A stretch of 64,000 nucleotides of DNA from contig JBBRYN010000001.1 of NCBI GenBank assembly GCA_038237645.1, forward strand, positions 40,101 through 104,100, given 5' to 3'. A program made the translations under genes and the position numbers. The stretch comes from Mycobacteriales bacterium. Lineage in GTDB: Bacteria; Actinomycetota; Actinomycetes; Mycobacteriales; QHCA01. Within the stretch, counting starts at the first letter, position 1; every line of letters starts with the position of its first letter. The notes under the pieces were generated by a model that ran no database searches, had not been told where the DNA came from, and saw only the letters and a program-made list of their open reading frames with translations. This document shows positions 32,633 to 57,265 of this stretch, in pieces.

Positions 32633-32655
32633 AGACTCCAGTCGCGGCGGACGGC

Positions 32656-33261: not shown

Positions 33262-33263
33262 CC

Positions 33264-33593: not shown

Positions 33594-33919
33594 GCTACAC
33601 CACCGCCGCGGTGCTCGGGGTCCTCGGCGCGGCGGCCGTCGACCTCGTGATGCTGCGGACCAGGCTGCTGACCCGCAGGCTGTTCTGGACCGCGTACGCG
33701 ATCATCGTGTCCTGCCAACTGCCGGTGAACGGCATCCTCACCGGCCGAGGGATCGTGCGCTACGACCGGCACGCGATCCTCGGCCTGCGGATCGCCAACG
33801 CCCCGGTGGAGGATTTGCTGTTCGGCTTCGCGATGGTGCTGCTGACCCTGTCGACCTGGGTGTGGCTGGGCCGACGCGGGATCAGTGCGACCCCTGCCGG
33901 ACCGCGAACGCCGAGATGA
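33590..33919 (+). CDS. crtYd: Lycopene cyclase domain protein, subunit 2 (CrtYd-like)
   Basis: Second ~110-aa membrane subunit. GTGA overlap with subunit 1 stop. 3' end overlaps convergent crtB by ~37 nt. Confidence 0.75.
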   Translation: MSYTTAAVLGVLGAAAVDLVMLRTRLLTRRLFWTAYAIIVSCQLPVNGILTGRGIVRYDRHAILGLRIANAPVEDLLFGFAMVLLTLSTWVWLGRRGISATPAGPRTPR

Positions 33920-36274: not shown

Positions 36275-36286
36275 GCGGGCCGGCGG

Positions 36287-37798: not shown

Positions 37799-37808
37799 GC
37801 GGCAGGCC

Positions 37809-38930: not shown

Positions 38931-38969
38931 GGGCCATCCTGACTCGAAGCGTGCACCCGAGTATCGGTC

Positions 38970-40593: not shown

Positions 40594-40652
40594 GGGGTGC
40601 CTATCGCTGACGAGTCTGGGTCGGCTGACCTGCGGACCTGCTGAAGGGTGGC

Positions 40653-41033
40653 TCACTGGTGCCGGTCCTCGATGACCAGCAGCCGGGCGCCAGCCTCGTT
40701 TTCGATGATGGTGCGGCGGGCGCGGTAGCTGCCGGGATGACGCGACAGGTGTTCTGGACTGGGAATGGCGACGGCCCGGACCTCTTGGCGGCGCAAAGCA
40801 TCCATCAGCGCGCAGAAGGCCGACCGTTCTGGATGGTCGTGAGACGGGTCGTACAGATCCGTGAAGACGTGCCCCAGCGTCAGGCCTTCCCGCTCGGCGT
40901 ACGAGTGGATTTCGGCTGCGAGCAGAGCACGCGTGTCCGGTGGATCGGCTGCCCATACCCGGAAGTAGCCGAGGATCAGCGGCCGTAGCCGACCGAAACC
41001 AGCGTCGTCGATTACGAAATCGGGCACCGTCAT
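40653..41033 (-). CDS. Hypothetical protein with resolvase-N-terminal-like sequence pattern but no catalytic serine
   Basis: 126 aa from ATG 41033. ILGYFRV...LTLGHVFTD...RRQEVRAVAIPSPEHLSR resembles a serine-recombinase catalytic-domain layout, with W in place of the nucleophile Ser. Low-confidence fold assignment. Confidence 0.35.
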   Translation of the reverse strand: MTVPDFVIDDAGFGRLRPLILGYFRVWAADPPDTRALLAAEIHSYAEREGLTLGHVFTDLYDPSHDHPERSAFCALMDALRRQEVRAVAIPSPEHLSRHPGSYRARRTIIENEAGARLLVIEDRHQ

Positions 41034-41205
41034 GGCGATGACGATCCGGTGACGTCCCGTGACCGGTCGAGGGCCGTTCGTGGGCGGCTTGCGGACCCAT
41101 CCGGGACCGGCCCCGGTCCCCAGTAGGACCAATGCTCGAGGCGCTTGCTCTTTGGATCCTGGGAGGTCAGCGTCAGACTGGACGTGTCGAAAGGAGTTGC
41201 GCACC

Positions 41206-42519
41206 ATGGCAGGTCGGGCTGCGACACCTCGCACGGTCCTGGAGCAGATGCTCTGGAAGCAGGACAGGACCTACGAGGAGTTGGCCTGCGACTTCGACGG
41301 GTTGGCACGCCAGATGGGCGAGCGGGCAACGATGAGCGCTCGGCACCTTCGGCGGCTGGCGTCGGGGCAGCGGTCGGGCACGACGCCCGTGACCCGCCGA
41401 GTCCTTCAACAGATGTTCGGCCTGCCCACCGGTGAGCTTCTTCAGTCGTTAGCCGATGGGCACGGCACTGTCACCTCAACGCCGGCCGAGGGGATCCTGG
41501 CCGACCCGAGCGAGCGAGAGTTGGTTGCCATGGCGGCGCAGCGCGCCCGCAAATTCACCCTGTCCACCAAGGCGACCGCGAGTGCTGAGTCCGTGGAGCA
41601 GGTCTATGACGATGTTCGGCGGCTGGCTGTCGCCTACCCTCGACACCCGCTGTCGGAAGTCCTCGCCACTCTCGTCCAGGTGCAGGACAGCACGTATGAA
41701 CTGCTCGAACATCGGCAACGGCCGCAGCAGGCGCGCGATCTGTACCTTCTTGCCGGGGTGGTGGGAGGCATGCTCGCCAAGGCCTCCCACGACCTGGCCG
41801 ATCCATATGCCGCTATGACCCAGGCCCGCGCAGCATTCCTGTGTGCGGACAACGCTGATCATGATGGTCTCCGCGCATGGTTGCGAGGCCTCCAGGCTCT
41901 CATCGCTTACTGGGCCGGTCGTCCAGCCGAGTCGGTCCGGTATGCCCAGTCGGGCGCCGAATACGTGGCCGAAGGGTATGGATCGGCCGGGGTGTGGTTG
42001 TCCTTGAGCCAAGCCCGTGGACTCGCCTCGCTCGGCGACCGGGAGGGCACCATGCATGCGATCCGTCAGGCGGAGGACGGCTGGGAAATGTTCCAGCCAG
42101 ATCAACTTGATGAGTTCGGTGGTATCTGCACATTCACTCGGTCGCGTCAGATCTACTACGCCGCGGACGCGCTCAGCTGGCTTCCCGATGAAGCCGTCCG
42201 TGCGGAGAACTACTCGGTCGAGGCCGTGCAGGCGTACAGCGACACTGACTCATCCGAGTGGGCGTTTGGCGATCAAGCCGGCTCGCACACGAACCTGGCC
42301 ATCGCCCAGATTGCTCGCGGGGAGCTGGACGGTGCCTATGAAGCCCTCGACCCGGTGCTTGGTCTCCCGCCGGGGCGACGGATCAATGGGATCATCCACT
42401 CCCTGCGGCGGGTGAACGACGCGCTGCGGCGATCGACGTCCGACGCGGACCGGGTTGTTGAGTTGCAGGAGGGAATCGAGGCATTCACTCGCACCCCGGT
42501 CGCGGCTCACCTGCGGTGA
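41206..42519 (+). CDS. XRE-family HTH regulator with C-terminal TPR-like domain
   Basis: AAGGAG SD 9 nt upstream of ATG 41206. N-terminal HTH-like region. ~300-aa helical-repeat C-terminus. Divergent from the 40653..41033 gene. Confidence 0.65.
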   Translation: MAGRAATPRTVLEQMLWKQDRTYEELACDFDGLARQMGERATMSARHLRRLASGQRSGTTPVTRRVLQQMFGLPTGELLQSLADGHGTVTSTPAEGILADPSERELVAMAAQRARKFTLSTKATASAESVEQVYDDVRRLAVAYPRHPLSEVLATLVQVQDSTYELLEHRQRPQQARDLYLLAGVVGGMLAKASHDLADPYAAMTQARAAFLCADNADHDGLRAWLRGLQALIAYWAGRPAESVRYAQSGAEYVAEGYGSAGVWLSLSQARGLASLGDREGTMHAIRQAEDGWEMFQPDQLDEFGGICTFTRSRQIYYAADALSWLPDEAVRAENYSVEAVQAYSDTDSSEWAFGDQAGSHTNLAIAQIARGELDGAYEALDPVLGLPPGRRINGIIHSLRRVNDALRRSTSDADRVVELQEGIEAFTRTPVAAHLR

Positions 42520-43139
42520 GCAGATGGGTTCGCACCCCGGTTCAAGTCCCCGGCCACCACGTCGTCCTGCGCGACTTCCGGCCCGACGATGTGGACGCTG
42601 CCCTTGCCGTGGTGGGCGACGACCGGGTAACACGATCGCTGTCCTTCGACAGCCGTGATCGAGATCAGGCAGCGGCCATGATCACCGGCGTGATTGACCG
42701 CGCGAGCCGGGACCCTCGTATCGAGTACTACCTGGCAATCACGCTCACTCAGACGGACGAGGCCATCGGTTTCGCCCGGCTGGGCCTCGACGGAGTTCAA
42801 GCGGCAAAGCTCGGCTACGCGATAGCCGCTGATCTCTGGGGCCGTGGGTACGCCACCGATGCCGCACGCACTATCGTCAGCTTCGGATTCCACGACCTCG
42901 GCCTGCATCGGATCAGCGCCGCAATCGGCCCCGACAACGCGCACTCGATCGCCTTGATTGAGCGGCTCGGTTTTGCGTACGAGGGCCGCATCCGGCACCA
43001 CGTCTTGACCAATGGAGTGTGGCGCGACAGCTTGCTGTACTCCGTTCTCGCCGAAGAGTGGGTCGTCGCCCAGTCGGGTCCGGCCGCCCCGGCCGGACCG
43101 GTGCTCAGCGCAGTGCCTCCGGCTGCCTCTGAGGGGTGA
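42516..43139 (+). CDS. GNAT family N-acetyltransferase (RimJ/RimL-like)
   Basis: Acetyl-CoA motif DLWGRGYATDAARTIVSFGF. 207 aa. Confidence 0.85.
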   Translation: MSRWVRTPVQVPGHHVVLRDFRPDDVDAALAVVGDDRVTRSLSFDSRDRDQAAAMITGVIDRASRDPRIEYYLAITLTQTDEAIGFARLGLDGVQAAKLGYAIAADLWGRGYATDAARTIVSFGFHDLGLHRISAAIGPDNAHSIALIERLGFAYEGRIRHHVLTNGVWRDSLLYSVLAEEWVVAQSGPAAPAGPVLSAVPPAASEG

Positions 43140-44836
43140 TCGTCGCCGGCGAGTTGTCCGCTGCCGGCGTGGCCGGTGAGCCGCTGGCGATCGTCGTCGT
43201 GCCGGGTGTCGGCCTGGCACTGGCCTGGGCCGGCGGCGAGCTGCAGGTGCCGACGCCCGAGCCGGCAACCGTCGTGCGCGATCTGGCGTCCCTGGATCCC
43301 CGGTGGACGTGGTGGTCGGCGCGGGCGACGGCGGCCACGCTGGTCGAGGCCGGAGTACGCCCGCGGATCTGCTGGGACCTCGGCGCGGTCGGACGGCTGC
43401 TGCACGGGCTGCGCCGCGACGACCCAGCGGCCGTGTGGGCCGCCGAGCACGGCCTGCCCGAGCCGCCGCTGCCCGCTGCGGCCCCCGACCTCTTCGACCT
43501 GGACGCTGGATCGGGTGGGCCGGTACGCGGCGACGGTCAGCTCAGCCGGGAGTGGCTGGCCGGAAGCTGGGCGAGCGGCCTCGACTCGGCGCAGCGCTGG
43601 GCCAGGCTGGCGATGGCGGTCCAGGGTCGCCAGGAGGCGGCACTGCACGCCTTGCCTGATTTCCGGCCGGGGCCCCGGCAGCCGCCACTGGCCTGGTTGA
43701 CCGCGTGCGCTGAATCGGCAGTGGCACTGTTGGCGGTGGAGCTCTCCCACGACGGGCTGCCGCTCGACCGGACGGTTTTCGCCGGGCTGCTGCGAGCCGC
43801 CATCGGCGAGCGGCCGGCGGATGCCGCTGAGCGGGCTGCCGGTCAGAGCGCCCGCGACGCGCTGGTGCTGCGGCACTTCGCCGGGCCGCCGGTCGACCTG
43901 CGCAACCCGCTGCAGGTGCGGGAGATGCTCGGCCGGGCCGGCTTCGACGTTCCGGACACCCGGTCCTGGCGCCTGCAGCCGCACGCCGCCACCAACCCGG
44001 GGATCGCGGCCCTGCTCGCCTGGCGCAAGGCCGAGCGAATTGCCACGACGTACGGCTGGCGCTGGCTGTCCCGGCACGTCGGCGAGGACGGGCGGCTGCG
44101 CGGGGGGTGGAACGCGGCCGACGGGGGATCCGGCCGGATGACGGCGGCGGCCGGGCTGCACAATCTGCCGGCGGTGCTGAGGACGGCCGTCCGTGCCGAG
44201 CCCGGCAAGATCCTGGTACGCGCCGACCTGGGCCAGGTGGAGCCGCGGGTGCTCGCGGCCGTCTCCGGCGACGCCGGGCTGGCACAGGCCGCCGGCGCGG
44301 ACGACATGTACGCACCGGTGGCAGCAGCGCTCGGCTGCGACCGGCCGACGGCCAAGGTCGCCGTGCTCGCCGCGATGTACGGCCAGACCTCGGGGGTCGC
44401 CGGCGCGGCGCTGCGCGACATGGACCGCGCCTACCCGCGGGCCATGGCCTACCTGCGAGCGGCAGAGGAGTCCGGGCGGCGGGGCCGGGACGTGCGCACC
44501 TACGGTGGCCGGCTGATCCCCCTGGCGCTGCCCGGGCCGGACGCCGCACCCGGCTACGGCCGCTACGCCCGCAACGCCGTCGTGCAGGGGGCGGCGGCTG
44601 AGCTGTTCAAGGCCTGGACGGCGACCGTCCGGGACGGTCTGCGAGTGATCGGCGGGGAGATCGTGCTGTGCCTGCATGACGAACTGCTGCTGCAGGTGCC
44701 ACGGCGACAGGCCGGCGCCACCAGGGAACTGCTCTCCGCAAGTCTGGACAGCACGACTCGCTGGTGGGCCGCCGGCAGCCCGGTGCGTTTCGTCGTCGAG
44801 GTGAGCTTCGGCGCCAGTTGGGCCGACGCCCACTGA
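43136..44836 (+). CDS. Minimal family-A DNA polymerase (PolA paralog lacking 5'-3' exo; degenerate exo-like N-domain)
   Basis: Motif A-like VRADLGQVEPRVLAAVSGD. Motif B RPTAKVAVLAAMYGQTSG. Motif C LCLHDELLLQV. GTGA overlap with GNAT stop. Confidence 0.75.
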   Translation: MIVAGELSAAGVAGEPLAIVVVPGVGLALAWAGGELQVPTPEPATVVRDLASLDPRWTWWSARATAATLVEAGVRPRICWDLGAVGRLLHGLRRDDPAAVWAAEHGLPEPPLPAAAPDLFDLDAGSGGPVRGDGQLSREWLAGSWASGLDSAQRWARLAMAVQGRQEAALHALPDFRPGPRQPPLAWLTACAESAVALLAVELSHDGLPLDRTVFAGLLRAAIGERPADAAERAAGQSARDALVLRHFAGPPVDLRNPLQVREMLGRAGFDVPDTRSWRLQPHAATNPGIAALLAWRKAERIATTYGWRWLSRHVGEDGRLRGGWNAADGGSGRMTAAAGLHNLPAVLRTAVRAEPGKILVRADLGQVEPRVLAAVSGDAGLAQAAGADDMYAPVAAALGCDRPTAKVAVLAAMYGQTSGVAGAALRDMDRAYPRAMAYLRAAEESGRRGRDVRTYGGRLIPLALPGPDAAPGYGRYARNAVVQGAAAELFKAWTATVRDGLRVIGGEIVLCLHDELLLQVPRRQAGATRELLSASLDSTTRWWAAGSPVRFVVEVSFGASWADAH

Positions 44837-44925: not shown

Positions 44926-46437
44926 TCACGCGGGGCCGATCAGGCCCGCGGTGATCTGCGCCGAGAGCAGCACCAGCGGCAGCCCGCCGCCGGGATGCGC
45001 CGAGCCGCCGACCAGGAACAGCCCCGGCAGCGGGGCGCGGTTGGCCGGCCGCAGGAAGGCGGCCCGCGGGCCGTTGGACGACGTCCCGTAGATCGCCCCG
45101 CCCACCGACCGGGTCTCGCGCTGCAGGTCGGCGGGAGTGCGGACCTCGGTGAACATCAGCCGGTCGCGCACGTCGTGACCGCGGTCGGCCAGCACCTCCA
45201 ACAGCCGCGCGGCGTAGGACTCCGCCCGGCCCGGCGCCGTCCAGTCGATCGCGCCGACGATCCCGTGAGCCCCCGAGTCGGTGCCGGCGTAGTGCCGTGC
45301 TGCATTGACCAGCACGAACCATGCCTCGTGCCCGTCCGGCGCAGCGGCCGGATCGTCCGGCACGCTGACGTACAGGGTCGGGTCGTCCACCGGTCGCGCA
45401 GCTGCGCCGAAAACGGCGTCGAACTCGGCGTCGTAGTCGACCGGAAAGAAGACGTTGTGGTGCGCCAGCCCGCGCGTACGTCCCCGTACCCCCAACAGCA
45501 GGACGAACGCCGACAGCGAGGGAGTGGCCCGGCGCAGCCGTCGCGCTGCACGGGGCAGGTCCACCAGGCTGCCGTAGACATGTGCCGCGTCGACGTCTGT
45601 GACGACGACGTCGGCCGGCAGCCGGCCGCCGCCGGCGAGCACCACGGCACTGGGCCGCCCGGCGGCGTGCTCGATAGCGGTGACATCTGCCGACGTGCGC
45701 AGCGTCGCCCCCGCCTCGATGCAGCGGGCCTGCAGCGCGCCGACGATCCGGCGCAGGCCGCCGCGGACATACCAGCCGCCGAAGGCCAGCTCGGCATAAG
45801 GGACGGCGGCCAGTGCCGCCGGCGCGCGCCGCGGGTCGGAACCGGTGTAGGTGGCGTAGCGCTCCAACAGCATCCGCAGCCGCGGATCGCGCAGGTGGGA
45901 CCGCCCGAGACTGCGCAGCGTCCGCCATGGCGCGATCGCCAGCAGGTCGCGCACGTGCCGGCTCTGGCGGAGCAGCGCCGGCAGGCCGGCCACCGGTGCG
46001 GACAGGAACGGCCCCGACGCCGCGGCCCAGATCCGCTCAGCCCGGCGCCAGAGCCGGTCCCAGTCCGCGCCGGCCGAGCCGCCGAGGGTGGCCTCGATCC
46101 GTTGGCAGAACATCTCGTGGTCGGAGCAGGAGTCCAGCATCGTGCCGTCAGCGAAGCGATATCTGGCCACCGGATCCAGCGGTACGAGGTCGAGCACCGA
46201 CTCCAGCGGGTCACCAGTGACATTGAACAGGTCGCCCAGCACCTGCGGGAGGGTCAGCAGCGACGGGCCGGTGTCGAAGCGGAACTGCCCGGCCGGCGTC
46301 CCGGTGACGAACTCGCCGAGCTTTCCGCCGAGCGCCGTCGACTGCTCGCACACGGTCACGGTATGGCCCAGCGCCGCCAGCCGAGCCGCCGCCGCCAGGC
46401 CGCCCACGCCGCCACCCACGACGACGATCCGGCTCAT
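44926..46437 (-). CDS. crtD: Carotenoid desaturase of the CrtI/CrtD family (putative 3,4-desaturase)
   Basis: FAD motif IVVVGGGVGGLAAAARLA. Phytoene-desaturase-family length. In an operon with carotenoid-tailoring genes. Confidence 0.8.
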   Translation of the reverse strand: MSRIVVVGGGVGGLAAAARLAALGHTVTVCEQSTALGGKLGEFVTGTPAGQFRFDTGPSLLTLPQVLGDLFNVTGDPLESVLDLVPLDPVARYRFADGTMLDSCSDHEMFCQRIEATLGGSAGADWDRLWRRAERIWAAASGPFLSAPVAGLPALLRQSRHVRDLLAIAPWRTLRSLGRSHLRDPRLRMLLERYATYTGSDPRRAPAALAAVPYAELAFGGWYVRGGLRRIVGALQARCIEAGATLRTSADVTAIEHAAGRPSAVVLAGGGRLPADVVVTDVDAAHVYGSLVDLPRAARRLRRATPSLSAFVLLLGVRGRTRGLAHHNVFFPVDYDAEFDAVFGAAARPVDDPTLYVSVPDDPAAAPDGHEAWFVLVNAARHYAGTDSGAHGIVGAIDWTAPGRAESYAARLLEVLADRGHDVRDRLMFTEVRTPADLQRETRSVGGAIYGTSSNGPRAAFLRPANRAPLPGLFLVGGSAHPGGGLPLVLLSAQITAGLIGPA

Positions 46438-47474
46438 GGCACGGGCCGTCCCTTCCAGACCAGCTCACCCCGTCGCCGGGCCAGGACCGACCGCGCGGTC
46501 AGCCAGCCGAACAACAACACCGACACCGGATGGGCGCAGGCGTCGGGCCACACCCGTCCGCCGGTGCGCCGGGCGGTGATAGCTCGGCCAGCCACACCGG
46601 CGAGGTAACCGACCAGGCCGGCCCGCGACCCGCGCAGGGCGGCCAGCGGCGGCAGCACGTACACCGCGGTGAGAGCCGCGGCGACCGTGACCGCGCCGCC
46701 GCGCGAACCGAATGCCGCCCACAGCGACTTGGCGTAGCCGGCCGACAGATCGGCCCAGTTCTCATACATCGTGCAGCTCGCCAGCCACGTGCCGTCGACG
46801 ACACCGCCCACGCCACCGGTGGCCTTGACCGCCCGGAGCAGCGCCACGTCCTCGACCACCGCCGCCCGGACGGCGGCATGGCCGCCGGCCCGGTCGTAGG
46901 CCGTCCGCCGGACGGCGAGGAACTGGCCGTTGGCCGCGGCCAACGACGGTCGCGGCGACCGCTCGGCCAGCCGGAGCGGGAGGAAGGACAGCCACGACCA
47001 TTGCAGCAGCGGCTGCACCAGTAGCGGGGCCGGCCCGGAGGCGACCTGCCGGGGGTACGGGGAGATCAGATCGAGGCCGGTGCGCTGCAGCAGGTCGACG
47101 GCGGCCGAGACCGCGTGCGGTGAGAGCACCACGTCGGCATCGACGAACACCAGGACGGCGGCGGCCGGATCCGCGGCATCGGCAAGCTGCTGGCAGGCGT
47201 GCGGCTTGCCCAGCCAGCCGACCGGCGGCTCCCGCCCGGTGAGCAGTCTGGCGTCGCGGGTGATCGATCCGCGGGTCAGGGCGCCGCGGATCGCATCCGT
47301 GGTCCCGTCGGTGGAGCCGTCGTCGAGCACGACGATCTCCATCCGGTCGCCGGCCGTCTGCTGCAGCAGGGCGGCCAGGCACGGGCCCACCCGGTGCGCC
47401 TCGTCACGTACCGGCAACAGCACCGAGACCTTGACCCCGGGCGGCGGTGGCCGTGCCGACGGGCGGCGGAGCAA
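46434..47474 (-). CDS. Family 2 glycosyltransferase (carotenoid glycosyltransferase CruC/CrtX-like)
   Basis: VSVLLPVRDE and VVLDDGSTDGT GT-A motifs. ATGA overlap with crtD start. TTG/GTG start estimated. The long N-terminal extension in the ORF track overlaps the next gene and is an artefact. Confidence 0.75.
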   Translation of the reverse strand: MLRRPSARPPPPGVKVSVLLPVRDEAHRVGPCLAALLQQTAGDRMEIVVLDDGSTDGTTDAIRGALTRGSITRDARLLTGREPPVGWLGKPHACQQLADAADPAAAVLVFVDADVVLSPHAVSAAVDLLQRTGLDLISPYPRQVASGPAPLLVQPLLQWSWLSFLPLRLAERSPRPSLAAANGQFLAVRRTAYDRAGGHAAVRAAVVEDVALLRAVKATGGVGGVVDGTWLASCTMYENWADLSAGYAKSLWAAFGSRGGAVTVAAALTAVYVLPPLAALRGSRAGLVGYLAGVAGRAITARRTGGRVWPDACAHPVSVLLFGWLTARSVLARRRGELVWKGRPVP

Positions 47475-47539
47475 GGCGGCGTTGACCGCGGCATGCGCGG
47501 CGGCGCCTGCCGCAACGACGGCACACCACCGGACCGGCC

Positions 47540-48292
47540 TCACCGGCGCTGCCCGGCGATCAACGTCACGGCCAGCGGGACGGCGACCACCCCCATCGCC
47601 GCGGCACCCCACACCGCCGAGCCCGGCAGCCCGAAGAAGCACGCGTGCCCGGCGACCGAGGACGCGTAGGTCCACAGGTACAGCGTGATCGGCACCGCGT
47701 CCGACGGCGAACGTCGAGCGGGCAGCAGGAGTACGAGGAGTAGGCCCATCGTGCCGGCGACGGCCAGCCAGCCGGCGTAGTTGGACACCGGCACATGCGG
47801 CACGCCGGGCAGCGCGGGCTGCGGGTCCACCCATCGCCAGTGGCCCGCACCGACCATCTGCGGGTCGAGAAACAGGTCCCAGGTGGCCAGTGCCAGGCCG
47901 GACAGCAGCCCGTGCGCGAGCCGGCGCGAGGTCAGCCGGCCGGCCACCACGTACGCCGGGTAGGCCATCATCGTCCAGGCCAGCGGGACCACCAGCGGCA
48001 CGCCGGCGACCCCGGCTCCCAGGCCGCCGGTGTAGGAGTAGCGCCCGAACGGGATCCCGGTGGCCACCCCGATCGCCTCGGCAAGCAGTCCTCCGGCGGC
48101 GGTGACTGCGACGAAGACGGCCGTCCAGCGGGCTCCCCGCGTCGCCGCGGCATGGGTAACTGAGGCAAGAAAGAAGCAGCAGACCGTGGTGACCGTCAAC
48201 GGGGAGCGCAGCGGCTCCCTGACGAGCGGGTAGGCGATCTCGGTGAGCACGGTGAGCGCCGCCGAGCCGGCGGCGGCCCGGCGACCCACCAC
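47540..48292 (-). CDS. cruF: Carotenoid biosynthesis membrane protein (DUF422, CruF-like C-1',2' hydratase)
   Basis: Multi-TM protein with W/H-rich loops (HWRWVDP, SNYAGW), as in CruF-type hydratases from recall. Start approximate (GTG 48292 or 48289). Confidence 0.55.
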   Translation of the reverse strand: MVGRRAAAGSAALTVLTEIAYPLVREPLRSPLTVTTVCCFFLASVTHAAATRGARWTAVFVAVTAAGGLLAEAIGVATGIPFGRYSYTGGLGAGVAGVPLVVPLAWTMMAYPAYVVAGRLTSRRLAHGLLSGLALATWDLFLDPQMVGAGHWRWVDPQPALPGVPHVPVSNYAGWLAVAGTMGLLLVLLLPARRSPSDAVPITLYLWTYASSVAGHACFFGLPGSAVWGAAAMGVVAVPLAVTLIAGQRR

Positions 48293-48303
48293 GGCGACCC
48301 GGC

Positions 48304-48852
48304 TCAGCGACCCGCCCTGGGCAAGCCGTCGAGGGGGAGGGTGCGGGCCAGCACCCCGAAGCGCCTGGTGTCCCCGGCGAACCGGTGGTGCCGCCGGAGG
48401 TCGACGAAGTCGAGCCGGCGATACAGCCGCCAGGCCCGCGACTCGCCCTCGGGGGTCGACAGCACGACCGTGGCATGCGGGCACCCGTCGAGGAGGCGGG
48501 CGAGCAGCCGCTGGCCGATTCCGTGTCCCTGCTGGTCGGGCCGCACGTGCAGTTCGCAGACCTCGAATGGGTCGGTCAGCCACCGCGCCGCGACCTCCTC
48601 GTCGAGGTCGCGGCGCACCTCGTCGTGCCACCACTGGCCGGGTGCGCCTCGATAGCCGTACGCGAAGCCGATCACCTCCCCCGATTCGTCCAGCGCGCCG
48701 GTGGCCCGGAAGCCGTTGCGCTGGGTGTGCACGACGACGTACCCCTTACGTTGCCGTCCGGTTTCCGCCGAATAGCCCATGGCCGCGCAGTAGATGTCGA
48801 GCGCGGTGTCGAGATGGTGCCGCAGATCGGCGCCCGACCAAGTGACGATCAT
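48304..48852 (-). CDS. GNAT family acetyltransferase
   Basis: Acetyl-CoA motif QQGHGIGQRLLARLL. 182 aa. The start region is triplicated (see repeat). Confidence 0.8.
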   Translation of the reverse strand: MIVTWSGADLRHHLDTALDIYCAAMGYSAETGRQRKGYVVVHTQRNGFRATGALDESGEVIGFAYGYRGAPGQWWHDEVRRDLDEEVAARWLTDPFEVCELHVRPDQQGHGIGQRLLARLLDGCPHATVVLSTPEGESRAWRLYRRLDFVDLRRHHRFAGDTRRFGVLARTLPLDGLPRAGR

Positions 48853-48883
48853 CGGGTGACGATCATCGGGTGACGATCATCGG
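48842..48883 (-). repeat. 14-bp x3 perfect tandem repeat (gtgacgatcatcgg) spanning the GNAT start codon and the stop of the upstream gene
   Basis: Read directly from the sequence. Creates two upstream mini-ORFs (MIVTR-stop) ahead of the real GNAT ATG. Confidence 0.95.
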
Positions 48884-49584
48884 GCCAGCGGGTCGCGGCC
48901 GAAGAGGGTGCCGGAGCTGCTGACCACAGCGAAGCGGGCGAACAACTCCTCGGCGTACCACCGTTCCTGCGTCGTTCGCCGGACGACCTCGGTGTGAACC
49001 GGTCGACGGTAGGCGAAGTCGTGCAGCGAGTCGGCGTCGTCCCAGACGCTGAACGTCCCCTGCAGCCCGATCGGCAGCTCACCGATGCCCATGCTGACCA
49101 GCAATCCCGGACAGCGACGCAGGTCGGCGGACACCGGTGGCACGGCCCGCCAGAAGGCCAGCGCCCGCTGCGGGGCGAGGCGGGCCCTGGTCAGGGCCGC
49201 CACCGGGCCCTGCCATCGTGCGGGATAGGGCCGGCCGAACGGTTCCCGGCCGGACCACCGGCCGCGGGATGCCAGCGGCACCAGGTCGCCGCGCCACCGC
49301 TCCGTGGCGATCCGCCGCCATCGGGCGGCGCTCACGGAGCGTTCGAAGGCATCCGCGGCGTCCCGGCTGGCCCAGGTGCTCAACAGGGCCCACCGGGTCG
49401 GGTCGCTGTCGCGGACGGTGAACGTACGGCCGCTGCCGGTGCCCAGGAGCTTGGCAAACCGCAGGCCTGACATCCGGCGCAGCGGCCGGCGGCCCGCAGC
49501 CATCCGCAGCAGCGCGGCCGGCATGCGCCGCAGCGGCACCCGCCACACGTGCAGTGTGACCAGCGCCGGCACGGGCTCCATCAT
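48877..49584 (-). CDS. CrtA-like protein (spheroidene monooxygenase family), putative carotenoid oxygenase
   Basis: VTLHVWRVP...LRFAKLLGTGSGRTFT...STWASRDAADAF pattern resembles CrtA N-terminus from recall. Family assignment tentative. Confidence 0.55.
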   Translation of the reverse strand: MMEPVPALVTLHVWRVPLRRMPAALLRMAAGRRPLRRMSGLRFAKLLGTGSGRTFTVRDSDPTRWALLSTWASRDAADAFERSVSAARWRRIATERWRGDLVPLASRGRWSGREPFGRPYPARWQGPVAALTRARLAPQRALAFWRAVPPVSADLRRCPGLLVSMGIGELPIGLQGTFSVWDDADSLHDFAYRRPVHTEVVRRTTQERWYAEELFARFAVVSSSGTLFGRDPLAR

Positions 49585-49605
49585 GGTGGCTGAGCCTACG
49601 GCCGG

Positions 49606-50067
49606 TCAGATCACCTCGATCGACCTGCCGCCGGTGGGCCGCAGCAATTCGTCGTAGCTGGTGTCGAAGACGGCGTCGGGTGTGCCGGCGCCGCACCACA
49701 CGACCGGATAATTGGCAAGGGTGACGTCGACCGCGGTCCGCAGCGGATGCGGATGGCCGACCGGCGCCACGCCGCCGATCGGCTGGCCGGTCGCCTCGCG
49801 CACGTATTCCGCGTCGGCCTGCTCGAGCGGGGGCAGGTCGAGCAGCACCGAGACCTTGGCGGTATCCACCCGGTGGGCTCCGCTGGCCAGGACCAGGATC
49901 GGCTCGGTCGACCGGAAGATCAGGCTGTTGGCGATGGCGCCGATCTCGACGCCGAGCGCGTCGGCGGCCAGTGCCGCGGTCAGCGCCGCGATCGGCAGTT
50001 CACGTACGGCACCGGTGGCTCCCAGCGCTCGTAGCGCCGCCGCCACTCCCTCGGCATTGGGGTGCAT
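49606..50067 (-). CDS. YbaK/ProX-like aminoacyl-tRNA editing domain protein
   Basis: 153 aa. SLIFRS...GGVAPVGHP pattern of the YbaK deacylase family. Confidence 0.75.
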   Translation of the reverse strand: MHPNAEGVAAALRALGATGAVRELPIAALTAALAADALGVEIGAIANSLIFRSTEPILVLASGAHRVDTAKVSVLLDLPPLEQADAEYVREATGQPIGGVAPVGHPHPLRTAVDVTLANYPVVWCGAGTPDAVFDTSYDELLRPTGGRSIEVI

Positions 50068-50150
50068 GTCAACAGTTGAGCAGAACTACTCAGCTCCGTC
50101 GAGCAGCAGTCCGCAGGACCGGCCGCCGGGCGGCCGCAAGGGTTGTAGCC

Positions 50151-51509
50151 ATGACCTCGAGCGCCCTCACCGCCCGTTCCCTTGCCACCGCCACCCCCGT
50201 CTCCCGTGATCGCTACGCGGACTTCCTGCGCGTGTTCTCCATCGGCGTCGTCGTCGCCGGGCACTGGCTGATGGCGGCGCCCACCGTGGATGCAGTTGGC
50301 CGGGTCGCTGCCGGCAACGCGCTGGCCGCTGTCCCGGTGCTGCAGTATGCGACGTGGCTGCTGCAGGTGATGCCGTTGTTTTTCTTCGTGGGTGGATTCG
50401 CCCACTACACCGCGCTGCAGGGGCTGCACCGTCGCGGTGGGTCCTATCCGGACTTCGTGCGCAGCCGGGTCACCCGGCTGCTGCGTCCGACCGCGGTGTT
50501 CGTCACCACCTGGCTGGTGGCCGCCCTCGCACTGGAGGTGACCGGCCGGCAGGCGGGTCTGCTGGCTCTCGCCGTGCGTACCGTTGCCCAGCCGCTGTGG
50601 TTCCTCGGCGTCTATTTGGGCGTCATGGCGCTGGCTCCCACCATGCTGCGGTGGCACCGTCGCAGCGGAGCGGCCGTCCCCGTGCTCCTCGCCGCCGTCG
50701 CCGTGGGGGTGGACGTGGCTTCCTTCGGACTGGACGTGCCCGGCCTGCGCGCGATCAACATCGCCGTGGTCTGGCTGGCCGTGCACCAGTTGGGTTACCT
50801 CTACGCCGATGGCACGCTCCTGCGCACCCGCCGGATCGGCCTGGGCATGGTCCTCGGCGGCCTAGGCACCGTGGTGGCTCTGACCACCAGCGGCGGGTAT
50901 CCGGTGTCGATGGTGGGGATGCCGGGTGAGGCAGTGACCAACATGAACCCGCCCACGGTCGCCCTGCTCGCGCATGCCGTCTGGTTGATCGGTCTGGCGC
51001 TGCTGGTTCGCGAACCGGTCACGCGCTGGCTCGACAACGTCCGCGTATGGACGGCCGTCGTCGCCGCGAACGGCGTCGTGATGACGGTGTTCCTATGGCA
51101 CCTGACGGCGCTGTTCGCCGGTTACGGGGTCTGGCTGTGGCTGGGCGGGCACGTCGCGCCGGCCGGCAGTTCGCTGTGGTGGCAGACCCGGCCGGCGTGG
51201 CTGGCCGGCTTCGCCGTGCTCTGCCTCGTGCTGGTCACGGCTTTCCGCCGGGTGGAGCGGCCCCGCCCGGCACCGTCCGGAGGTCCGGCGCCCCGGCTCG
51301 ATCCGGCCCGGTCGCGGGTCGCGGCGGCCGGCGCCGCAGCCTGCTGCCTGGGGATCCTGGGCCTGTCGGCAACCGGATTCGGCCGGATCCTCGCAGGTCA
51401 CTCCGTCACGATGGTCGTACTGCCGATGTCGGTACCGGTTGCCGTGCTGCTGGTGTTCGCCGGTTGGCTGGCGCTGTCACTGCCTCCGTCTGCGTCGCGC
51501 CCCTCCTGA
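50151..51509 (+). CDS. Acyltransferase 3 family membrane protein (putative carotenoid-glycoside acyltransferase)
   Basis: ~10 TM segments. N-terminal FLRVFSIGVVVAGHW with the conserved His of the acyltransferase-3 family. Adjacent to the carotenoid tailoring operon. Confidence 0.75.
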   Translation: MTSSALTARSLATATPVSRDRYADFLRVFSIGVVVAGHWLMAAPTVDAVGRVAAGNALAAVPVLQYATWLLQVMPLFFFVGGFAHYTALQGLHRRGGSYPDFVRSRVTRLLRPTAVFVTTWLVAALALEVTGRQAGLLALAVRTVAQPLWFLGVYLGVMALAPTMLRWHRRSGAAVPVLLAAVAVGVDVASFGLDVPGLRAINIAVVWLAVHQLGYLYADGTLLRTRRIGLGMVLGGLGTVVALTTSGGYPVSMVGMPGEAVTNMNPPTVALLAHAVWLIGLALLVREPVTRWLDNVRVWTAVVAANGVVMTVFLWHLTALFAGYGVWLWLGGHVAPAGSSLWWQTRPAWLAGFAVLCLVLVTAFRRVERPRPAPSGGPAPRLDPARSRVAAAGAAACCLGILGLSATGFGRILAGHSVTMVVLPMSVPVAVLLVFAGWLALSLPPSASRPS

Positions 51510-51605: not shown

Positions 51606-51787
51606 ACACCTCGTGCCGGTCGCTCGATCGGCGCGGGCGGATCTCTCGCCGCGGCGCGGTCCTCGACCCACCGCGTCCCGGTTGGGAGCCACCGGCCGGG
51701 GCGACGTGGGGAAGCGTTGCCTCGGTCCGGTGACCGCTGCTGCCCGTCTTCCCCGGCAGCACATCTGACGACGGCTGTGCGGGAAGG

Positions 51788-52141
51788 GTGTGTGCATTGA
51801 CAAGGTTGTACGGCGATGCCGTTGACGACGCCGCCGAGGTGCGGCGGCGAGCCGACGAGCCTGAACAGTTCCTCTGGCGTGACCGGTTGTATCTCGTCCG
51901 GGCCGTGTTGGAGCACTGGATGGAGTCAGGAGGATGGTGGCGCACCGGTATGACGCGGGCGGCGCGCTCCGGTGCGCCTGCCGCTGGTGTGGACGGTGCG
52001 ACAGGCGGTGCACTCGACGACGGGGAGCGGGAGTTCTGGCGGGTCGAAGCCGGTGCCGGCCGGCTCGACGACACCGGGGTGTTCGACCTGTGCTTCGACT
52101 GGTCGCACGGCCAGTGGACCGTCGTCCGGGTGCAGGACTAG
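51788..52141 (+). CDS. Small conserved hypothetical protein (117 aa; possibly DUF6504-like) upstream of dnaE2
   Basis: W/R-rich motif FLWRDRLYLVRAVLEHWMESGGWWR. First gene downstream of the SOS box. Family name recalled with low confidence. Confidence 0.5.
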   Translation: MCALTRLYGDAVDDAAEVRRRADEPEQFLWRDRLYLVRAVLEHWMESGGWWRTGMTRAARSGAPAAGVDGATGGALDDGEREFWRVEAGAGRLDDTGVFDLCFDWSHGQWTVVRVQD

Positions 52142-52145
52142 TTCG

Positions 52146-52580
52146 ATGTCCCGGATCCCGCCTCCGGCCCGTCAGTCTGCCCTGAGCCTGCTCTCTCAGG
52201 CCCGGCGGGCGATGGACGAAGCGATGGCGCTGGAGCGGCCGGCCGAGCGTTACTCCGCCACGCACCTCGCGGCACTGCGGGCGGCTGCGGCGGTGCTCGC
52301 CGCACGGGCCCGGCCGACGGCACCCGTGCCCCGACGGTTGTCGCGCCCGACCAGTGCCTGGACGCTGCTGTGCCGGGTTGCTCCGGAGCTCACGGAGTGG
52401 GCCGGATTCTTCGCCGCTGGCGCGGCCAAGCGTGCCGCTGCCGAGGCGGGCCTGCCCCGTTCGGTTACCGCGCGGGAGGCCGACGACCTGGTACGTGACG
52501 CCCAAACCTTCCTTACCGTCGTCGAGACCTTGCTCGGTTTGCTGACCGAGCCGATGCTCACCACCGCAAGGCGCGGGTGA
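52146..52580 (+). CDS. Small alpha-helical protein, HEPN-like (SAV_6107-like family), 144 aa
   Basis: All-helical, Ala/Arg-rich. 3' end overlaps the dnaE2 start (GTGA). HEPN assignment from recall of family naming. No strict Rx4-6H motif verified. Confidence 0.45.
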   Translation: MSRIPPPARQSALSLLSQARRAMDEAMALERPAERYSATHLAALRAAAAVLAARARPTAPVPRRLSRPTSAWTLLCRVAPELTEWAGFFAAGAAKRAAAEAGLPRSVTAREADDLVRDAQTFLTVVETLLGLLTEPMLTTARRG

Positions 52581-55500
52581 GAAGTGCCTTGGCAGATCCA
52601 TTCGTGCACTTACACGTCGCGTCGGGCTACTCGCTGCGGCACGGCGCGAGCTCACCGCGGGTCCTGGCCGAGCGGGCCGCCGAGCACGGCATGGACTCCC
52701 TGGCGCTGACCGACCGGGACGGCGTCTACGGCGCAGTGAAGTTCGTCATCGCCTGCCGGAGTGTCGGAGTGCGGCCCTTGCTCGGGGTCGATCTCGCCGT
52801 CGCACCGGGAAGCACCGCAGCACCGGGAAGCACCGCAGCACCGGGAAGCACCGCAGCACCGGGAAGCACCGCCCGGCGCACCCCCGCACGGGGCGGAGCG
52901 GAGGTTGATCCCCGATTGCCGCGGGTGACCCTGCTGGCCCAAGACGGGCGTGGGTGGGCTTCGTTGTGCCGGCTGATCAGTGCCACGCATTTGGCGGGGG
53001 AGCGAAGTCGCCCGGTCACCTCGCTCGACCTGATCGCGTCGCATGCGGCCGGGTTGTTCGTGTTGCTAGGGCCGGCCTCGGAGTTGGGTCGCGCGGTGGC
53101 CGCCCACCGCCCCGACCTGGCCCGGGCCGTCCTTGCTCGCTGGCGAGCGGTGCTCCCCGCGGAGGATCTGCTCGTCGAGATCGTCTCCCACCGAGGACGC
53201 GGAGACACCGGGCGGGCGGCGGCACTGCTCGGGTTTGCCGCAGCGACCAGCCTGCCAGCGATGCTGACCAACGCGGTGCGCTTCGCCGATCGGGCCAACG
53301 CGCCGATTGCGGATGTTCTCGACTCCGCCCGCCGGCTGGTCCCCCTCGGTGCCCGCTCGGTCGACCGTGTCAACGCCGAGGGCTATCTGAAGTCGGGCAA
53401 GGAGATGGCCGTGGCGGCCTACGAGGTGTGCGGCCCCGACCGCGACGCGGCTGATCGCCTGCTTGCCCGCACCAGGCACGTTGCCGATCGGTGCGCGGTC
53501 GACCCCCGCACCGATATGGGCATCGGCGAAGTGCACTTCCCCGAGCTCGGGGGAGCCGGGGCCAACGGTGCGGCGGGTGCGGCGAGGGCCGTGCTGCGGG
53601 CCAGGTGCGAGGCGGGTTTGGGTCGGCGAGTCATGGCACCCACCGCAGAAGTCCAAGAGCGGCTCGATCACGAACTCGGCATCATCGACGGGCTCGGCTA
53701 TCCGTCGTACTTCCTGACCGTGGCCGACATCGCCGACCTCATTCGCTCGCTGGGCGTGCGCTGTGCTGCCCGGGGATCGGGCGCCGGCAGCCTCGTCACC
53801 TACCTGCTGGGAATCTCCGATGTCGATCCGATCCGTTACCGGCTGCTGATGGAGCGCTTTCTGTCGCCGCTGCGCCAAGCGTTGCCCGACATCGACATCG
53901 ACGTGGAGTCGGCTCGCCGGACAGAGGTCTACGAGGCGGTGCTTGCGCGATTCGGTGCGCAGCGGTGCACGTGCGTATCGATGATGGACACCTACCGCGC
54001 CCGGCATGCGATCCGCGATGTCGGGGCGGCGCTCGGGCTGCCGCCAGGTGAGATCGACGCGGTGGCCAAGGCGTTTCCGCACATTCGGGCAAACCAGCTC
54101 CATCAGGCGTTGCACGACCTGCCCGAGCTACGGGCCAGCGGGTTGGGGGAGGCGCGCCTGTCGCTGCTGTTCACCCTGGCCGAACGGCTGGACGGGCTTC
54201 CTCGGCACATTGCCCTGCACCCCTGCGGTGTGTTGCTCTCCGATAAGACGCTGCTCGACCGCACGCCGGTCGAGGCGAGCTACCTGGGCTTCCCGATGAG
54301 CCAGTTCGACAAGGACGACGTCGAGGAACTCGGATTTCTCAAGCTCGACCTGCTCGGCATCCGGATGCAGTCGGCGATGGCCCACGCGATCGACGAGGTG
54401 CAGCGGGTCGACGGGGAGCGGATCGACATCGACGCGGTGCCGCGCGACGACCCGACGACCTTTGCGCTTGTGCGCTCCACCCGGCTGCTCGGTTGCTTCC
54501 AGATCGAGTCTCCCGGCCAGCGCGAATTGATCGGCAAGTTCGGGCCCGAGACGTTCGATGACCTCATCGTCGACATCTCGCTGTTCCGTCCCGGGCCGGT
54601 CAAGAGCGACATGGTGACACCGTTCCTCGAGGCCCGGCAGGGCTGGCGGCCGCCCAGCTACTTCCACGACGACGTACGCCCGGCGCTCGAGCAGACCTGC
54701 GGCGTGGTCGTCTTCCACGAGCAGGTGCTCGAGATCGTCGCTGTGTTGACCGGCTGCTCGCTTGCCGAGGCCGACGAGGTGCGTCGCGCGCTCGGCGACA
54801 AGGACGGCCAGGAGGAGGTGCGGGTCTGGTTCCGCCCATTGGTGCTGGCTCGTGGCTACGACCTGGCCACCGTCGATCGGGCGTGGGAGATTCTGCGCGC
54901 CTTCGGTTCGTTCGGTTTCTGCAAGGCTCATGCGGCGGCGTTTGCCCTGCCGACCTACCAGTCGGCGTGGCTCAAGGCGCACCATCCGGCCGCATTCCTC
55001 GCCGGAGTCCTCACCCATGACCCGGGCATGTATCCCAAGCGGCTGATTCTCGACGACGCCCGGCAGTTCGGCATCGCCGTGCTCGGGCTCGACGTCAACG
55101 TTTCCGAGTCGACCTATCGGATGGAGCGGGTAGGAGACTTCGACGAGCCGCCATCGGGGATCCCCGCCCGGCCTCCGCGGGCGAGTTCCGAGGACCCCGG
55201 CCGGTCGTCGCGGGCGAGTTCCGAGGACCCCGGCTGGCCGAACAGTCGTTGTCATGGGATCCGGTTGTCGCTGGCCGACGTCAGGGGCATCTCCGCAGCC
55301 GAGATCGCCCGGATCGTGGCCGGCCGGCCCTACCATTGCCTGGCCGACTTCTGGCACCGTGCGGCGGTGTCCCGCCCGATCGCGGAGCGACTGGTGGTGG
55401 CAGGCGGCTTCGACACCCTCTACGGCATCGGGACGTCGCTGACGGTGCGCCGACAAGGTCAGGTGACCCGGCGTGACCTGCTGTTGCAGGTCGCCGAGCT

Positions 55501-56422
55501 CGACCAGTGGTCCCGGGGCGTGCGGCGGTCTGCTCGGGCGACGGCACCGCGTCTGGCAGGCAAGGGCCGCCGCAAGGCCGGCGGCAGCGGCGAGCGGAGC
55601 GGCTCACCCACAGACGATCCGATCCGCAGCCAGGCAGCCGGTCAGTCTCAGGCCGCGGCCGTGCCGGAGCCGGTTGACGTCCAGCTGATCCTCGACCTCG
55701 GTGACGACCCGGGGCACACCAGCCTGTCCGGGCTACCTGAGATGACCGGTGCCGAGCGGGTACGCGCCGAGCTCGACGTGCTCGGCCTCGACGCGAGCCA
55801 GCACATCGTGGATTTCTACGAGCCGTTCTTCGCCGCGGTCGGAATTACCCGGTCGCGGGATCTGCTCGGCTGTCGCAGCAAGGCCGAAGTGCTGGTCGCG
55901 GGAGTCAAGGTCGCCACCCAGACGCCACCGGTCAGGTCTGGCCGGCGGGTCGTTTTCGTCACCCTCGACGACGCCACCGGGCCGGTCGACGCGACGTTCT
56001 TCGAGGATGCCCAAGTCGGCTATGCCAGCACTCTTTTTCACTGCTGGCTGCTGGTCATCCGCGGTGAGGTTCGGCGGACGGGCCGGCGCGGGGTGTCGAT
56101 CCGGGCGACCGGCTGCTGGGAACTCCCCGCGTTGCGGGACGCATGGGAGTGCGGCGGCCTGGCGGCGGTCGCCGCGGCGATGCGGGCCCCTGCCGTGCTC
56201 ACCGAGGAAGCGGTCCACGGCGCCGCCGAGAGCAGATCGGGCCGCCCCGTGACGACCCGGCCGCCGGGAGCCGGCCATGACGGTCCGGCCGGCCGCGCCG
56301 TGCTGGTCTCGGCCACCGGTTTCCGGCTCTCGCCATATGCCGACATCAAGCCACCTGGTGAAGCATCCCAGGGGGCGCCGCGCAAGCTGTGGCATTCCAG
56401 CCCGGGGAGTTCCGGTGGATGA
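52577..56422 (+). CDS. dnaE2: Error-prone DNA polymerase III alpha (DnaE2/ImuC), unusually long (1281 aa)
   Basis: N-terminal PHP domain HLHVASGYSL...LALTDRDGVYG. Pol III alpha core motifs. SOS box upstream. Contains two in-frame tandem-repeat insertions. Confidence 0.9.
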   Translation: MRSALADPFVHLHVASGYSLRHGASSPRVLAERAAEHGMDSLALTDRDGVYGAVKFVIACRSVGVRPLLGVDLAVAPGSTAAPGSTAAPGSTAAPGSTARRTPARGGAEVDPRLPRVTLLAQDGRGWASLCRLISATHLAGERSRPVTSLDLIASHAAGLFVLLGPASELGRAVAAHRPDLARAVLARWRAVLPAEDLLVEIVSHRGRGDTGRAAALLGFAAATSLPAMLTNAVRFADRANAPIADVLDSARRLVPLGARSVDRVNAEGYLKSGKEMAVAAYEVCGPDRDAADRLLARTRHVADRCAVDPRTDMGIGEVHFPELGGAGANGAAGAARAVLRARCEAGLGRRVMAPTAEVQERLDHELGIIDGLGYPSYFLTVADIADLIRSLGVRCAARGSGAGSLVTYLLGISDVDPIRYRLLMERFLSPLRQALPDIDIDVESARRTEVYEAVLARFGAQRCTCVSMMDTYRARHAIRDVGAALGLPPGEIDAVAKAFPHIRANQLHQALHDLPELRASGLGEARLSLLFTLAERLDGLPRHIALHPCGVLLSDKTLLDRTPVEASYLGFPMSQFDKDDVEELGFLKLDLLGIRMQSAMAHAIDEVQRVDGERIDIDAVPRDDPTTFALVRSTRLLGCFQIESPGQRELIGKFGPETFDDLIVDISLFRPGPVKSDMVTPFLEARQGWRPPSYFHDDVRPALEQTCGVVVFHEQVLEIVAVLTGCSLAEADEVRRALGDKDGQEEVRVWFRPLVLARGYDLATVDRAWEILRAFGSFGFCKAHAAAFALPTYQSAWLKAHHPAAFLAGVLTHDPGMYPKRLILDDARQFGIAVLGLDVNVSESTYRMERVGDFDEPPSGIPARPPRASSEDPGRSSRASSEDPGWPNSRCHGIRLSLADVRGISAAEIARIVAGRPYHCLADFWHRAAVSRPIAERLVVAGGFDTLYGIGTSLTVRRQGQVTRRDLLLQVAELDQWSRGVRRSARATAPRLAGKGRRKAGGSGERSGSPTDDPIRSQAAGQSQAAAVPEPVDVQLILDLGDDPGHTSLSGLPEMTGAERVRAELDVLGLDASQHIVDFYEPFFAAVGITRSRDLLGCRSKAEVLVAGVKVATQTPPVRSGRRVVFVTLDDATGPVDATFFEDAQVGYASTLFHCWLLVIRGEVRRTGRRGVSIRATGCWELPALRDAWECGGLAAVAAAMRAPAVLTEEAVHGAAESRSGRPVTTRPPGAGHDGPAGRAVLVSATGFRLSPYADIKPPGEASQGAPRKLWHSSPGSSGG
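52802..52873 (+). repeat. 18-bp x4 tandem repeat (gcaccgggaagcaccgca) inside dnaE2, encoding (APGSTA)4
   Basis: Read directly from the sequence. In frame within the PHP-domain region. Confidence 0.95.
55169..55243 (+). repeat. 33-bp tandem duplication inside dnaE2 (RASSEDPGRSS / RASSEDPGWPN)
   Basis: The 24-nt core cgggcgagttccgaggaccccggc occurs twice with a 33-nt period. In frame. Confidence 0.9.
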
Positions 56423-56497
56423 CCCTGCGCCGCCGATACGCTCGCGGGACGGGTTCGCCGACGACGGCGGCACGGGTCCAGCGCGAGGAGACACTCA

Positions 56498-57241: not shown

Positions 57242-57265
57242 TGTGACGGCGGCCGGAGAGGTCTG

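Follow-up and report, generated by a model that had tools for sequence, protein, structure and literature searches.

A probable carotenoid end-group tailoring operon of the actinobacterial sioxanthin/actinoxanthin type in a Mycobacteriales chromosome

The biosynthesis of sioxanthin in Salinispora tropica was reportedly described by Richter, Hughes and Moore in 2015, with subclusters named terp1 and terp2. According to reviews, the psi end of sioxanthin carries a 1'-beta-D-glucosyloxy group, a 2'-hydroxyl group and a 3',4'-didehydro bond, the genes in Salinispora are divided between two distant subclusters and some single genes, and the pathway is said to be widespread in the Micromonosporaceae, with the cluster reported across Micromonospora. 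In the acI Actinobacteria the genes acyltransferase-crtA-cruF-cruG-crtD are located upstream of crtE-I-B and crtYc/Yd converge on crtB; this arrangement is transcribed as an operon whose predicted product is a gamma-carotene-derived glycoside ester, named 'actinoxanthin' (Dwulit-Smith et al. 2018, bioRxiv 10.1101/367102). Here we describe a related locus in a segment of 64,000 nucleotides from the chromosome of an actinobacterium with 71% GC (Mycobacteriales bacterium, assembly GCA_038237645.1, contig JBBRYN010000001.1, positions 40,101 to 104,100), below called the window. The minus-strand genes at 44926-50067 of the window most likely constitute a chromosomal operon for tailoring of carotenoid end groups, of the actinobacterial sioxanthin or acI 'actinoxanthin' type, in which a YbaK-like gene and a GNAT gene would belong to a conserved backbone block.

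Two further systems are relevant for the comparison. With flavobacterium genes in E. coli, the enzymes CruF, CrtD and CrtA-OH convert gamma-carotene in turn into 1'-hydroxy-gamma-carotene, 1'-hydroxytorulene and deoxymyxol (PMC11855829). The acyl glycosides of Salinibacter and Rhodothermus, such as salinixanthin, depend on the glycosyltransferase CruC and the acyltransferase CruD, and products of this class are 2'-hydroxy-1'-(acyl-glycosyloxy)-3',4'-didehydro monocyclic carotenoids; Rhodothermus is without recognisable homologues of CruF, CrtD and CrtA.

The genes of the window were called from third-position GC, the coordinates of the open reading frames (ORFs) and, for the starts, alignment of homologues, and families were assigned by Pfam and NCBIfam profile searches of the window proteins. 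The tailoring locus has the following features (lengths in amino acids, aa).

44926-46437, minus strand: CrtD-like carotenoid 3',4'-desaturase, a flavoprotein of the CrtI family, 503 aa; last gene of the operon
46434-47543, minus strand: family-2 glycosyltransferase (GT2) with a predicted CruC/CruG-like role, 369 aa; PF00535
47540-48292, minus strand: CruF-family carotenoid 1',2'-hydratase, a membrane protein of about 250 aa; PF04240
48304-48852, minus strand: GNAT-family acetyltransferase between crtA and cruF, 182 aa; PF00583
48877-49584, minus strand: CrtA-family protein of 235 aa, predicted to oxygenate carotenoids at C-2(') as hydroxylase or ketolase; NF045923
49606-50067, minus strand: YbaK/ProX-like protein of the INS superfamily, 153 aa; PF04073; heads the minus-strand run
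50068-50150, between the strands: divergent intergenic region of 83 bp, presumed promoter region of both units
50151-51509, plus strand: Acyl_transf_3 (AT3) integral-membrane acyltransferase, 452 aa; PF01757; candidate sugar O-acyltransferase

The six minus-strand genes run from 50067 to 44926 with spacings, in order, of 21, 24, 11, -4 and -4 bp. An initial annotation of this DNA had placed the CrtA-like, GNAT, CruF-like, GT2 and CrtD-like genes tightly packed on the minus strand, and all of them are found there. It had also proposed ATGA coupling between GT2 and crtD; the sequence itself shows the stop of GT2 running into the start of crtD ('...gtgccATGAgccgg...'), and GT2 is translationally coupled to crtD through this overlap. 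The junction between CruF and GT2 is likely to be a second 4-bp overlap, GTGA, given a GTG start of GT2 at 47543, and this start is favoured because the homologues in two related loci (L001 and L002; L numbers denote retrieved loci) align from GT2 residue 1. The AT3 gene is located on the plus strand, as was first noted, but it faces the YbaK-like gene across the 83 bp and not crtA. A sigma-70 consensus was not found in the divergent region, where the scan is uninformative for an actinobacterium of this GC content, and the promoter/terminator scan gave only weak terminator-like sites.

The family membership of the carotenoid enzymes is secure from the profile matches, with E-values from 1e-14 to 1e-101, and the CruF-like and CrtA-like assignments, on which the earlier pathway prediction leaned, both survive the search. 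The CruF-like protein reaches 111.1 bits with PF04240 (Caroten_synth; gathering score 25, E 9e-32), 126 bits with TIGR03460 (cutoff 154.7) and 53 bits with NF045693, the gamma-carotene 1'-hydroxylase CruF (cutoff 400). The CrtA-like protein matches NF045923, spheroidene monooxygenase, with 179.6 bits (E 6e-53) over profile positions 3-224 of 226, and misses the cutoff of 300. A sequence search of the PDB with the CrtA family profile gave no match. The AlphaFold2 model of the protein (pLDDT 88.9) has a tandem ferredoxin-like/ABM fold, and Foldseek places it near tandem ABM monooxygenases, PenE and heme aldoxime dehydratase; because of this fold and these neighbours the protein fits an oxygenase. 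The CrtD-like protein, which is separate from the crtI product encoded at 36287-37858, has 327.6 bits with TIGR02734 (crtI_fam), over the cutoff of 238.1. Its best equivalog is NF045637 (CrtD) with 340.7 bits, under the cutoff of 580, the Pfam models Amino_oxidase and NAD_binding_8 also match, and the identity to the syntenic genes of related loci is 46-71%. GT2 matches PF00535 with an E-value of 9e-15, and both NF045692 (CruG, 106 bits, cutoff 600) and TIGR03469 (HpnB, 118.5 bits) far under cutoff.

For the study of conservation the best 80 loci from GTDB species genomes were retrieved with an alignment of CrtA-like proteins, and the window proteins were placed on them by tblastn; 63 of the 80, in which 5 kb or more of sequence follow CrtA, are informative. 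In 41/63, CrtA is followed on its own strand by CruF, GT2 and CrtD with the order unchanged; five have CruF and GT2 only, four have a partial set, and in 13 CrtA stands alone. CruF is syntenic in 46 of the 63. Most loci run on into metF (opposite strand), crtE and crtI, matching the window. The lineages include metagenome-assembled genomes of Mycobacteriales and Frankiales, Frankia, Kineococcus, Kineosporia, Quadrisphaera, Motilibacteraceae, Nanopelagicales (acI), Nocardioidaceae, Egibacter and Euzebyaceae. The loci with CrtA alone are from Geodermatophilaceae, except L014.

Two side observations were made in these loci. Lone CrtA-like proteins, 61-69% identical, are found in Geodermatophilus, Blastococcus and Trujillonella, with no CruF, GT2, CrtD or YbaK-like gene within 10 kb (L003, L005, L006, L008, L010, L011, L015, L023, L025, L028, L030, L035). 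In many related operons a further FAD oxidoreductase, about 530 aa long and of the amine-oxidase type, is encoded between CrtA/GNAT and CruF (L012, L016, L021, L024, L026, L031, L044, L047, L049-L052, L066, L075, L077), and some of these also have a conserved protein of about 155 aa without Pfam match before cruF; neither is found in the window. These insertions may add a ketolase- or desaturase-type step.

The core carotenoid genes at 33264-38930, which the initial annotation had recognised as a crtEIB/crtYcd locus, are located about 6 kb from the tailoring operon, and crtE, crtI, crtB and crtYc/Yd all have NCBIfam and Pfam matches.

33264-33593, plus strand: crtYc, Lycopene_cyc, convergent on crtB
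33572-33919, plus strand: crtYd, Lycopene_cyc, convergent on crtB
33882-34781, minus strand: crtB, PF00494 (SQS_PSY) 232.5 bits
34793-36274, minus strand: MptB-like membrane gene between crtI and crtB, MptB model 198.5 bits
36287-37858, minus strand: crtI, crtI_fam 510.9 bits
37809-38930, minus strand: crtE/idsA, CrtE protein 254.7 bits to M. tuberculosis Rv2173 (8f8f)

The Lycopene_cyc scores for the crtYc/crtYd pair are 38 and 47.5 bits. Neither a lycopene elongase nor crtU, crtO/W or crtZ turned up among the annotated window genes. The MptB-like gene encodes a GT-C-type protein that passes the MptB model and also matches TIGR03459 ('crt_membr') with 240.7 bits, and a gene of this kind after crtI is found in L001, L053, L061, L074, L078 and L079 as well. 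Between the two loci lies a gap of about 5 kb (39963-44836). It encodes an NsdA-family TPR regulator (41059-42519), a further GNAT (42516-43139) and, at 43136-44836, a PolA-like exonuclease/polymerase; of two other ORFs, one is without annotation and one (40653-41234) weakly resembles a resolvase. As just some 0.7 kb separates crtD from metF in L001, the closest relative, the gap looks like a lineage-specific insertion.

Compared with the acI 'actinoxanthin' operon, the order of the tailoring genes, the position of metF, crtE and crtI, and the convergence of crtYc/Yd all match. The Nanopelagicales loci L065, L069 and L070 are syntenic with identities of 54-56% for CrtA, 47-49% for CruF, 45-56% for GT2 and 57% for CrtD, and they too have a YbaK-like gene upstream. 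Unlike acI, the window has a GNAT gene between crtA and cruF and its two loci are split by the NsdA-like, GNAT and PolA-like genes, and the putative acyltransferase is an alpha/beta hydrolase in the acI operons but a divergent Acyl_transf_3 protein in the window. The psi end of sioxanthin is what would be expected from CruF, CrtD, a CrtA-type oxygenase and a glycosyltransferase. The genes of Salinispora are, however, in distant subclusters, whereas the window loci are 6 kb apart, and the ring of sioxanthin is a CrtU-dependent aryl (phi) ring while CrtU was not seen in the window. The flavobacterial myxol/deoxymyxol pathway (Nonlabens spongiae, Flavobacterium P99-3) has the CruF, CrtD and CrtA families in common with the window, but its clusters combine CrtZ with a cyclase of the CrtY type and lack a glycosyltransferase, where the window has CrtYc/Yd, GT2 and AT3 and no CrtZ was seen. 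The Salinibacter and Rhodothermus pigments are of the product class predicted for the window, in which, in contrast to that system, the CrtO ketolase was not seen.

The predicted pathway, with its enzyme order, regiochemistry, sugar identity, acylation and final product, would run as follows. CrtE, CrtB and CrtI of the neighbouring locus would supply lycopene, and the heterodimeric CrtYc/Yd would cyclise one end of it, giving gamma-carotene. CruF would then hydrate C-1',2' at the open psi end to a 1'-hydroxyl and CrtD would add the 3',4' double bond, while the CrtA-family tandem-ABM oxygenase would oxygenate C-2', most likely to a hydroxyl like CrtA-OH. GT2 would put a hexose on one of the two hydroxyls, at the 1'-O position glycosylated in sioxanthin and phleixanthophyll or at the 2'-O position of myxol glycosides, and the divergent AT3 may esterify the sugar. 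The predicted product is thus a monocyclic glycoside that resembles phleixanthophyll or sioxanthin and may be acylated. As crtYcd alone was seen in the window, a beta-ring, phleixanthophyll-like analogue of sioxanthin would be the simplest product, and crtU or crtO elsewhere in the genome would make an aryl or keto ring possible. Myxol proper requires a ring 3-hydroxylase, and sioxanthin requires CrtU. The core of the myxol-glycoside or sioxanthin-like pigment first proposed is supported by the profile matches, the synteny, the acI precedent and the enzyme steps shown for a flavobacterium, and it is refined as to the ring, as neither a ring 3-hydroxylase nor CrtU was seen among the annotated genes.

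Several points weigh against assigning the operon to this type. The acI pathway is itself only predicted, and the likeness to Salinispora was judged by product structure and cluster descriptions; no locus from the Micromonosporaceae is among the best 80 anchored on CrtA. The matches to the CrtD, CrtA, CruF and CruG models all lie under their equivalog cutoffs, and exact substrates and regiochemistry are for that reason not established by the profiles, so that the specificities given here are predictions. Ring-modifying genes (crtU, crtO/W, crtZ) outside the window could change the product. Only four related genomes have AT3 linked to the operon, other lineages having the alpha/beta hydrolase, and a functional link between YbaK and CrtA is possible from their tight spacing and wide conservation: a YbaK-like gene precedes CrtA on its strand in 35 of the 80 CrtA-anchored loci, with a gap below 110 bp in 15.

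The role of AT3 is where an alternative survives best. The protein matches PF01757 with 86.5 bits over profile positions 3-322 of 326 and has no NCBIfam match. Acyl_transf_3 proteins mostly acylate envelope polysaccharides, and it may quite possibly be an O-acyltransferase for cell-envelope glycans that is located beside the operon by chance, although we do not favour this. Besides the usual targets of the family, the opposite strand, the DNA-repair genes that come next and the absence of AT3 from most related operons speak for such a role. On the other hand, homologues with 48-66% identity adjoin YbaK/CrtA in four other species genomes (L002, L036, L042, L059), in two of which (L036 and L042) the gene sits between YbaK and CrtA. 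No AT3 homologue was seen in 80 loci retrieved by a metagenome scan with an alignment of the YbaK-like clade; 27 of these YbaK-anchored loci, with at least 2.5 kb downstream, are informative, 19 without and eight with tailoring genes. Furthermore, other lineages put a different putative acyltransferase at the same place, namely the alpha/beta hydrolase, the counterpart of the 'acI-acyltransferase' of Dwulit-Smith et al. As AT3, this hydrolase or neither is found according to lineage, acylation seems to be supplied by exchangeable genes, and acylation of the glycoside by AT3 is plausible, if weakly supported. The alpha/beta hydrolase (PF12697) is located directly upstream of crtA in L042, L043, L062, L067, L069 and L072, which include Kineococcus, Nanopelagicales and others. 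The plus-strand region after AT3 (51734-58573) is a damage-tolerance set with a DUF6504 protein (51734-52141), a DnaE2-type Pol III alpha subunit (52577-56422) and a DinB/Y-family polymerase (57242-58573).

It is also conceivable, but rather doubtful, that the same operon performs a different chemistry, with CrtA as a 2'-ketolase, the glycosyltransferase acting on the 2'-hydroxyl, or acyclic lycopene as the substrate, the last leading to symmetric dihydroxy or diglycosyl products. The only model matched by CrtA is that of the purple-bacterial ketolase (NF045923), GT2 matches the model of the CruG 2'-O-glycosyltransferase with its 106 bits, and CruF and CrtD accept lycopene too in E. coli (PMC11855829). 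However, these matches are all far under the equivalog cutoffs, sioxanthin as the known actinobacterial product of such a gene set combines a 2'-hydroxyl with a 1'-O-glucoside, and crtYc/Yd adjoin crtB.

The GNAT and YbaK-like genes were described from the start as unexpected members of the operon. They are conserved in this place, but a role in the pathway is the less likely reading, as the two are also paired beside metF/idsA without tailoring genes. GNAT matches PF00583 with an E-value of 2.6e-8 and RimI-like proteins weakly, its translation contains the acetyl-CoA loop 'QGHGIGQRL' (Q/R-x-x-G-x-G/A), and no PDB relative was found by sequence search at E 0.01. It directly follows CrtA in 18 of the 63 informative loci. 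Among the 27 informative YbaK-anchored loci, eight have the tailoring genes downstream, five have metF/idsA without them and 14 have neither; a clean YbaK-GNAT-metF-idsA arrangement with no CrtA, CruF, GT2 or CrtD is seen in L085, L110 and L128. Both genes persist without pigment genes and are therefore read as backbone neighbours: they are probably co-transcribed members of a conserved backbone block of YbaK-like, GNAT, metF, idsA and MptA/B-like genes, and probably not pigment enzymes.

An unlikely alternative is that one or both are true members of the pathway, GNAT acetylating a sugar or amino-sugar residue of the glycoside and the lysine-less YbaK-like protein acting on a sugar or aminoacyl ester. 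This would agree with their position inside or at the head of a tightly packed run, with the upstream YbaK-like gene recurring across several taxonomic orders and GNAT recurring after CrtA, and with the loss of the lysine while the GXXXP loop is kept in the YbaK-like clade, hinting at a changed substrate. Against this, the YbaK-like gene with the asparagine occurs without a tailoring gene in 19 of the 27 loci, the YbaK-GNAT pair stands next to metF/idsA without tailoring genes in the three loci just named, the full operon is found without GNAT in many lineages including Kineococcus and Nanopelagicales, and GNAT resembles an ordinary RimI-type acetyl-CoA enzyme.

The backbone is also seen in the genes around the core locus. 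Window 23504-39920 resembles the aroG-pknL-mptA-idsA2-Rv2172c region of M. tuberculosis, in which Rv2170 is presumably a GNAT. Among its parts are the class II DAHP synthase at 23504-24931, the PASTA Ser/Thr kinase at 26977-28902, the MptA/B-like and metF genes, and an IdsA near Rv2173 (8f8f, 254.7 bits). In M. tuberculosis Rv2173 adjoins MptA, Rv2174 (PMC12035560). The carotenoid genes appear to be embedded in this conserved actinobacterial block. A horizontally acquired island was considered and rejected, given the uniform GC of 0.70-0.74 and the conserved backbone setting.

The YbaK-like protein itself matches PF04073 (tRNA_edit) with 90.9 bits, and its best solved relative is TTHA1699 of Thermus thermophilus (PDB 2cx5), a putative ProX-type trans-editing enzyme, with 95 bits over residues 2-148 from the single sequence and 135 bits from the profile. 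The full-length domain and the GXXXP loop are common to both, but TTHA1699 has a lysine where the window protein has an asparagine: Asn47, in 'IANSLIF', takes the alignment column of the Lys that E. coli YbaK has in 'VYKTLLV', that TTHA1699 has in 'IVKSLVF' and that APE2540 also has. Nearly all of 35 aligned operon-linked copies have 'IANSL', occasionally 'IASSL', and two have 'IVKSL', and the loop 'IGGVAPVGH' is invariant or nearly so in the clade. All characterised deacylases of the INS superfamily are reported to use the conserved lysine (PMC11286415). Since this lysine is replaced and the GXXXP loop is kept, the clade may have a changed activity. It is very unlikely, though worth stating, that the Lys-to-Asn protein, which often stands at the head of the tailoring operon, is no longer an aminoacyl-tRNA deacylase and instead acts on some non-tRNA ester, such as an acyl or aminoacyl group trimmed or edited on the sugar of a membrane carotenoid glycoside or of another isoprenoid-linked glycolipid, with GNAT adding a second acyl decoration. 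If the substrate is not tRNA, the functional range of the editing-domain fold would be extended, and within the locus this clade alone might merit experimental work. The Asn/Ser clade, seen among the YbaK-like hits of L001-L079 and L081-L160, is widespread in Actinomycetota metagenome contigs.

Least probable is a C50 carotenoid of the bacterioruberin type with CruF as bisanhydrobacterioruberin hydratase, a reading that was rejected: the top NCBIfam match of the CruF-like protein is indeed that hydratase model, TIGR03460, but it scores under the cutoff, a UbiA-type lycopene elongase was not found by crtYcd or among the annotated window genes, and GT2 and a CrtA-type oxygenase are foreign to the bacterioruberin pathway.

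Operons of the sioxanthin/'actinoxanthin' kind are already known in Actinobacteria, from Salinispora and acI, and the window is one more case. It adds one more uncultured, high-GC actinobacterium (Mycobacteriales in the GTDB sense) to the lineages for which a polar carotenoid glycoside with a single ring is predicted, and the operon type is conserved well outside the Micromonosporaceae and Nanopelagicales, with accessory acylation genes that appear interchangeable by lineage (AT3, alpha/beta hydrolase or none). The use of this lies in annotation and in rules for genome mining, and the understanding of the pathway is unchanged.

Elsewhere in the window two DAHP synthases are encoded within 3 kb of each other, the class II enzyme at 23504-24931 on the plus strand (PF01474, 641 bits) and a class I enzyme with an FXD domain at 25923-27095 on the minus strand (PF00793). 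A signalling protein of 1183 aa, encoded at 13858-17409 on the minus strand, contains double zinc-ribbon, adenylate/guanylate cyclase and AAA_16 ATPase domains.

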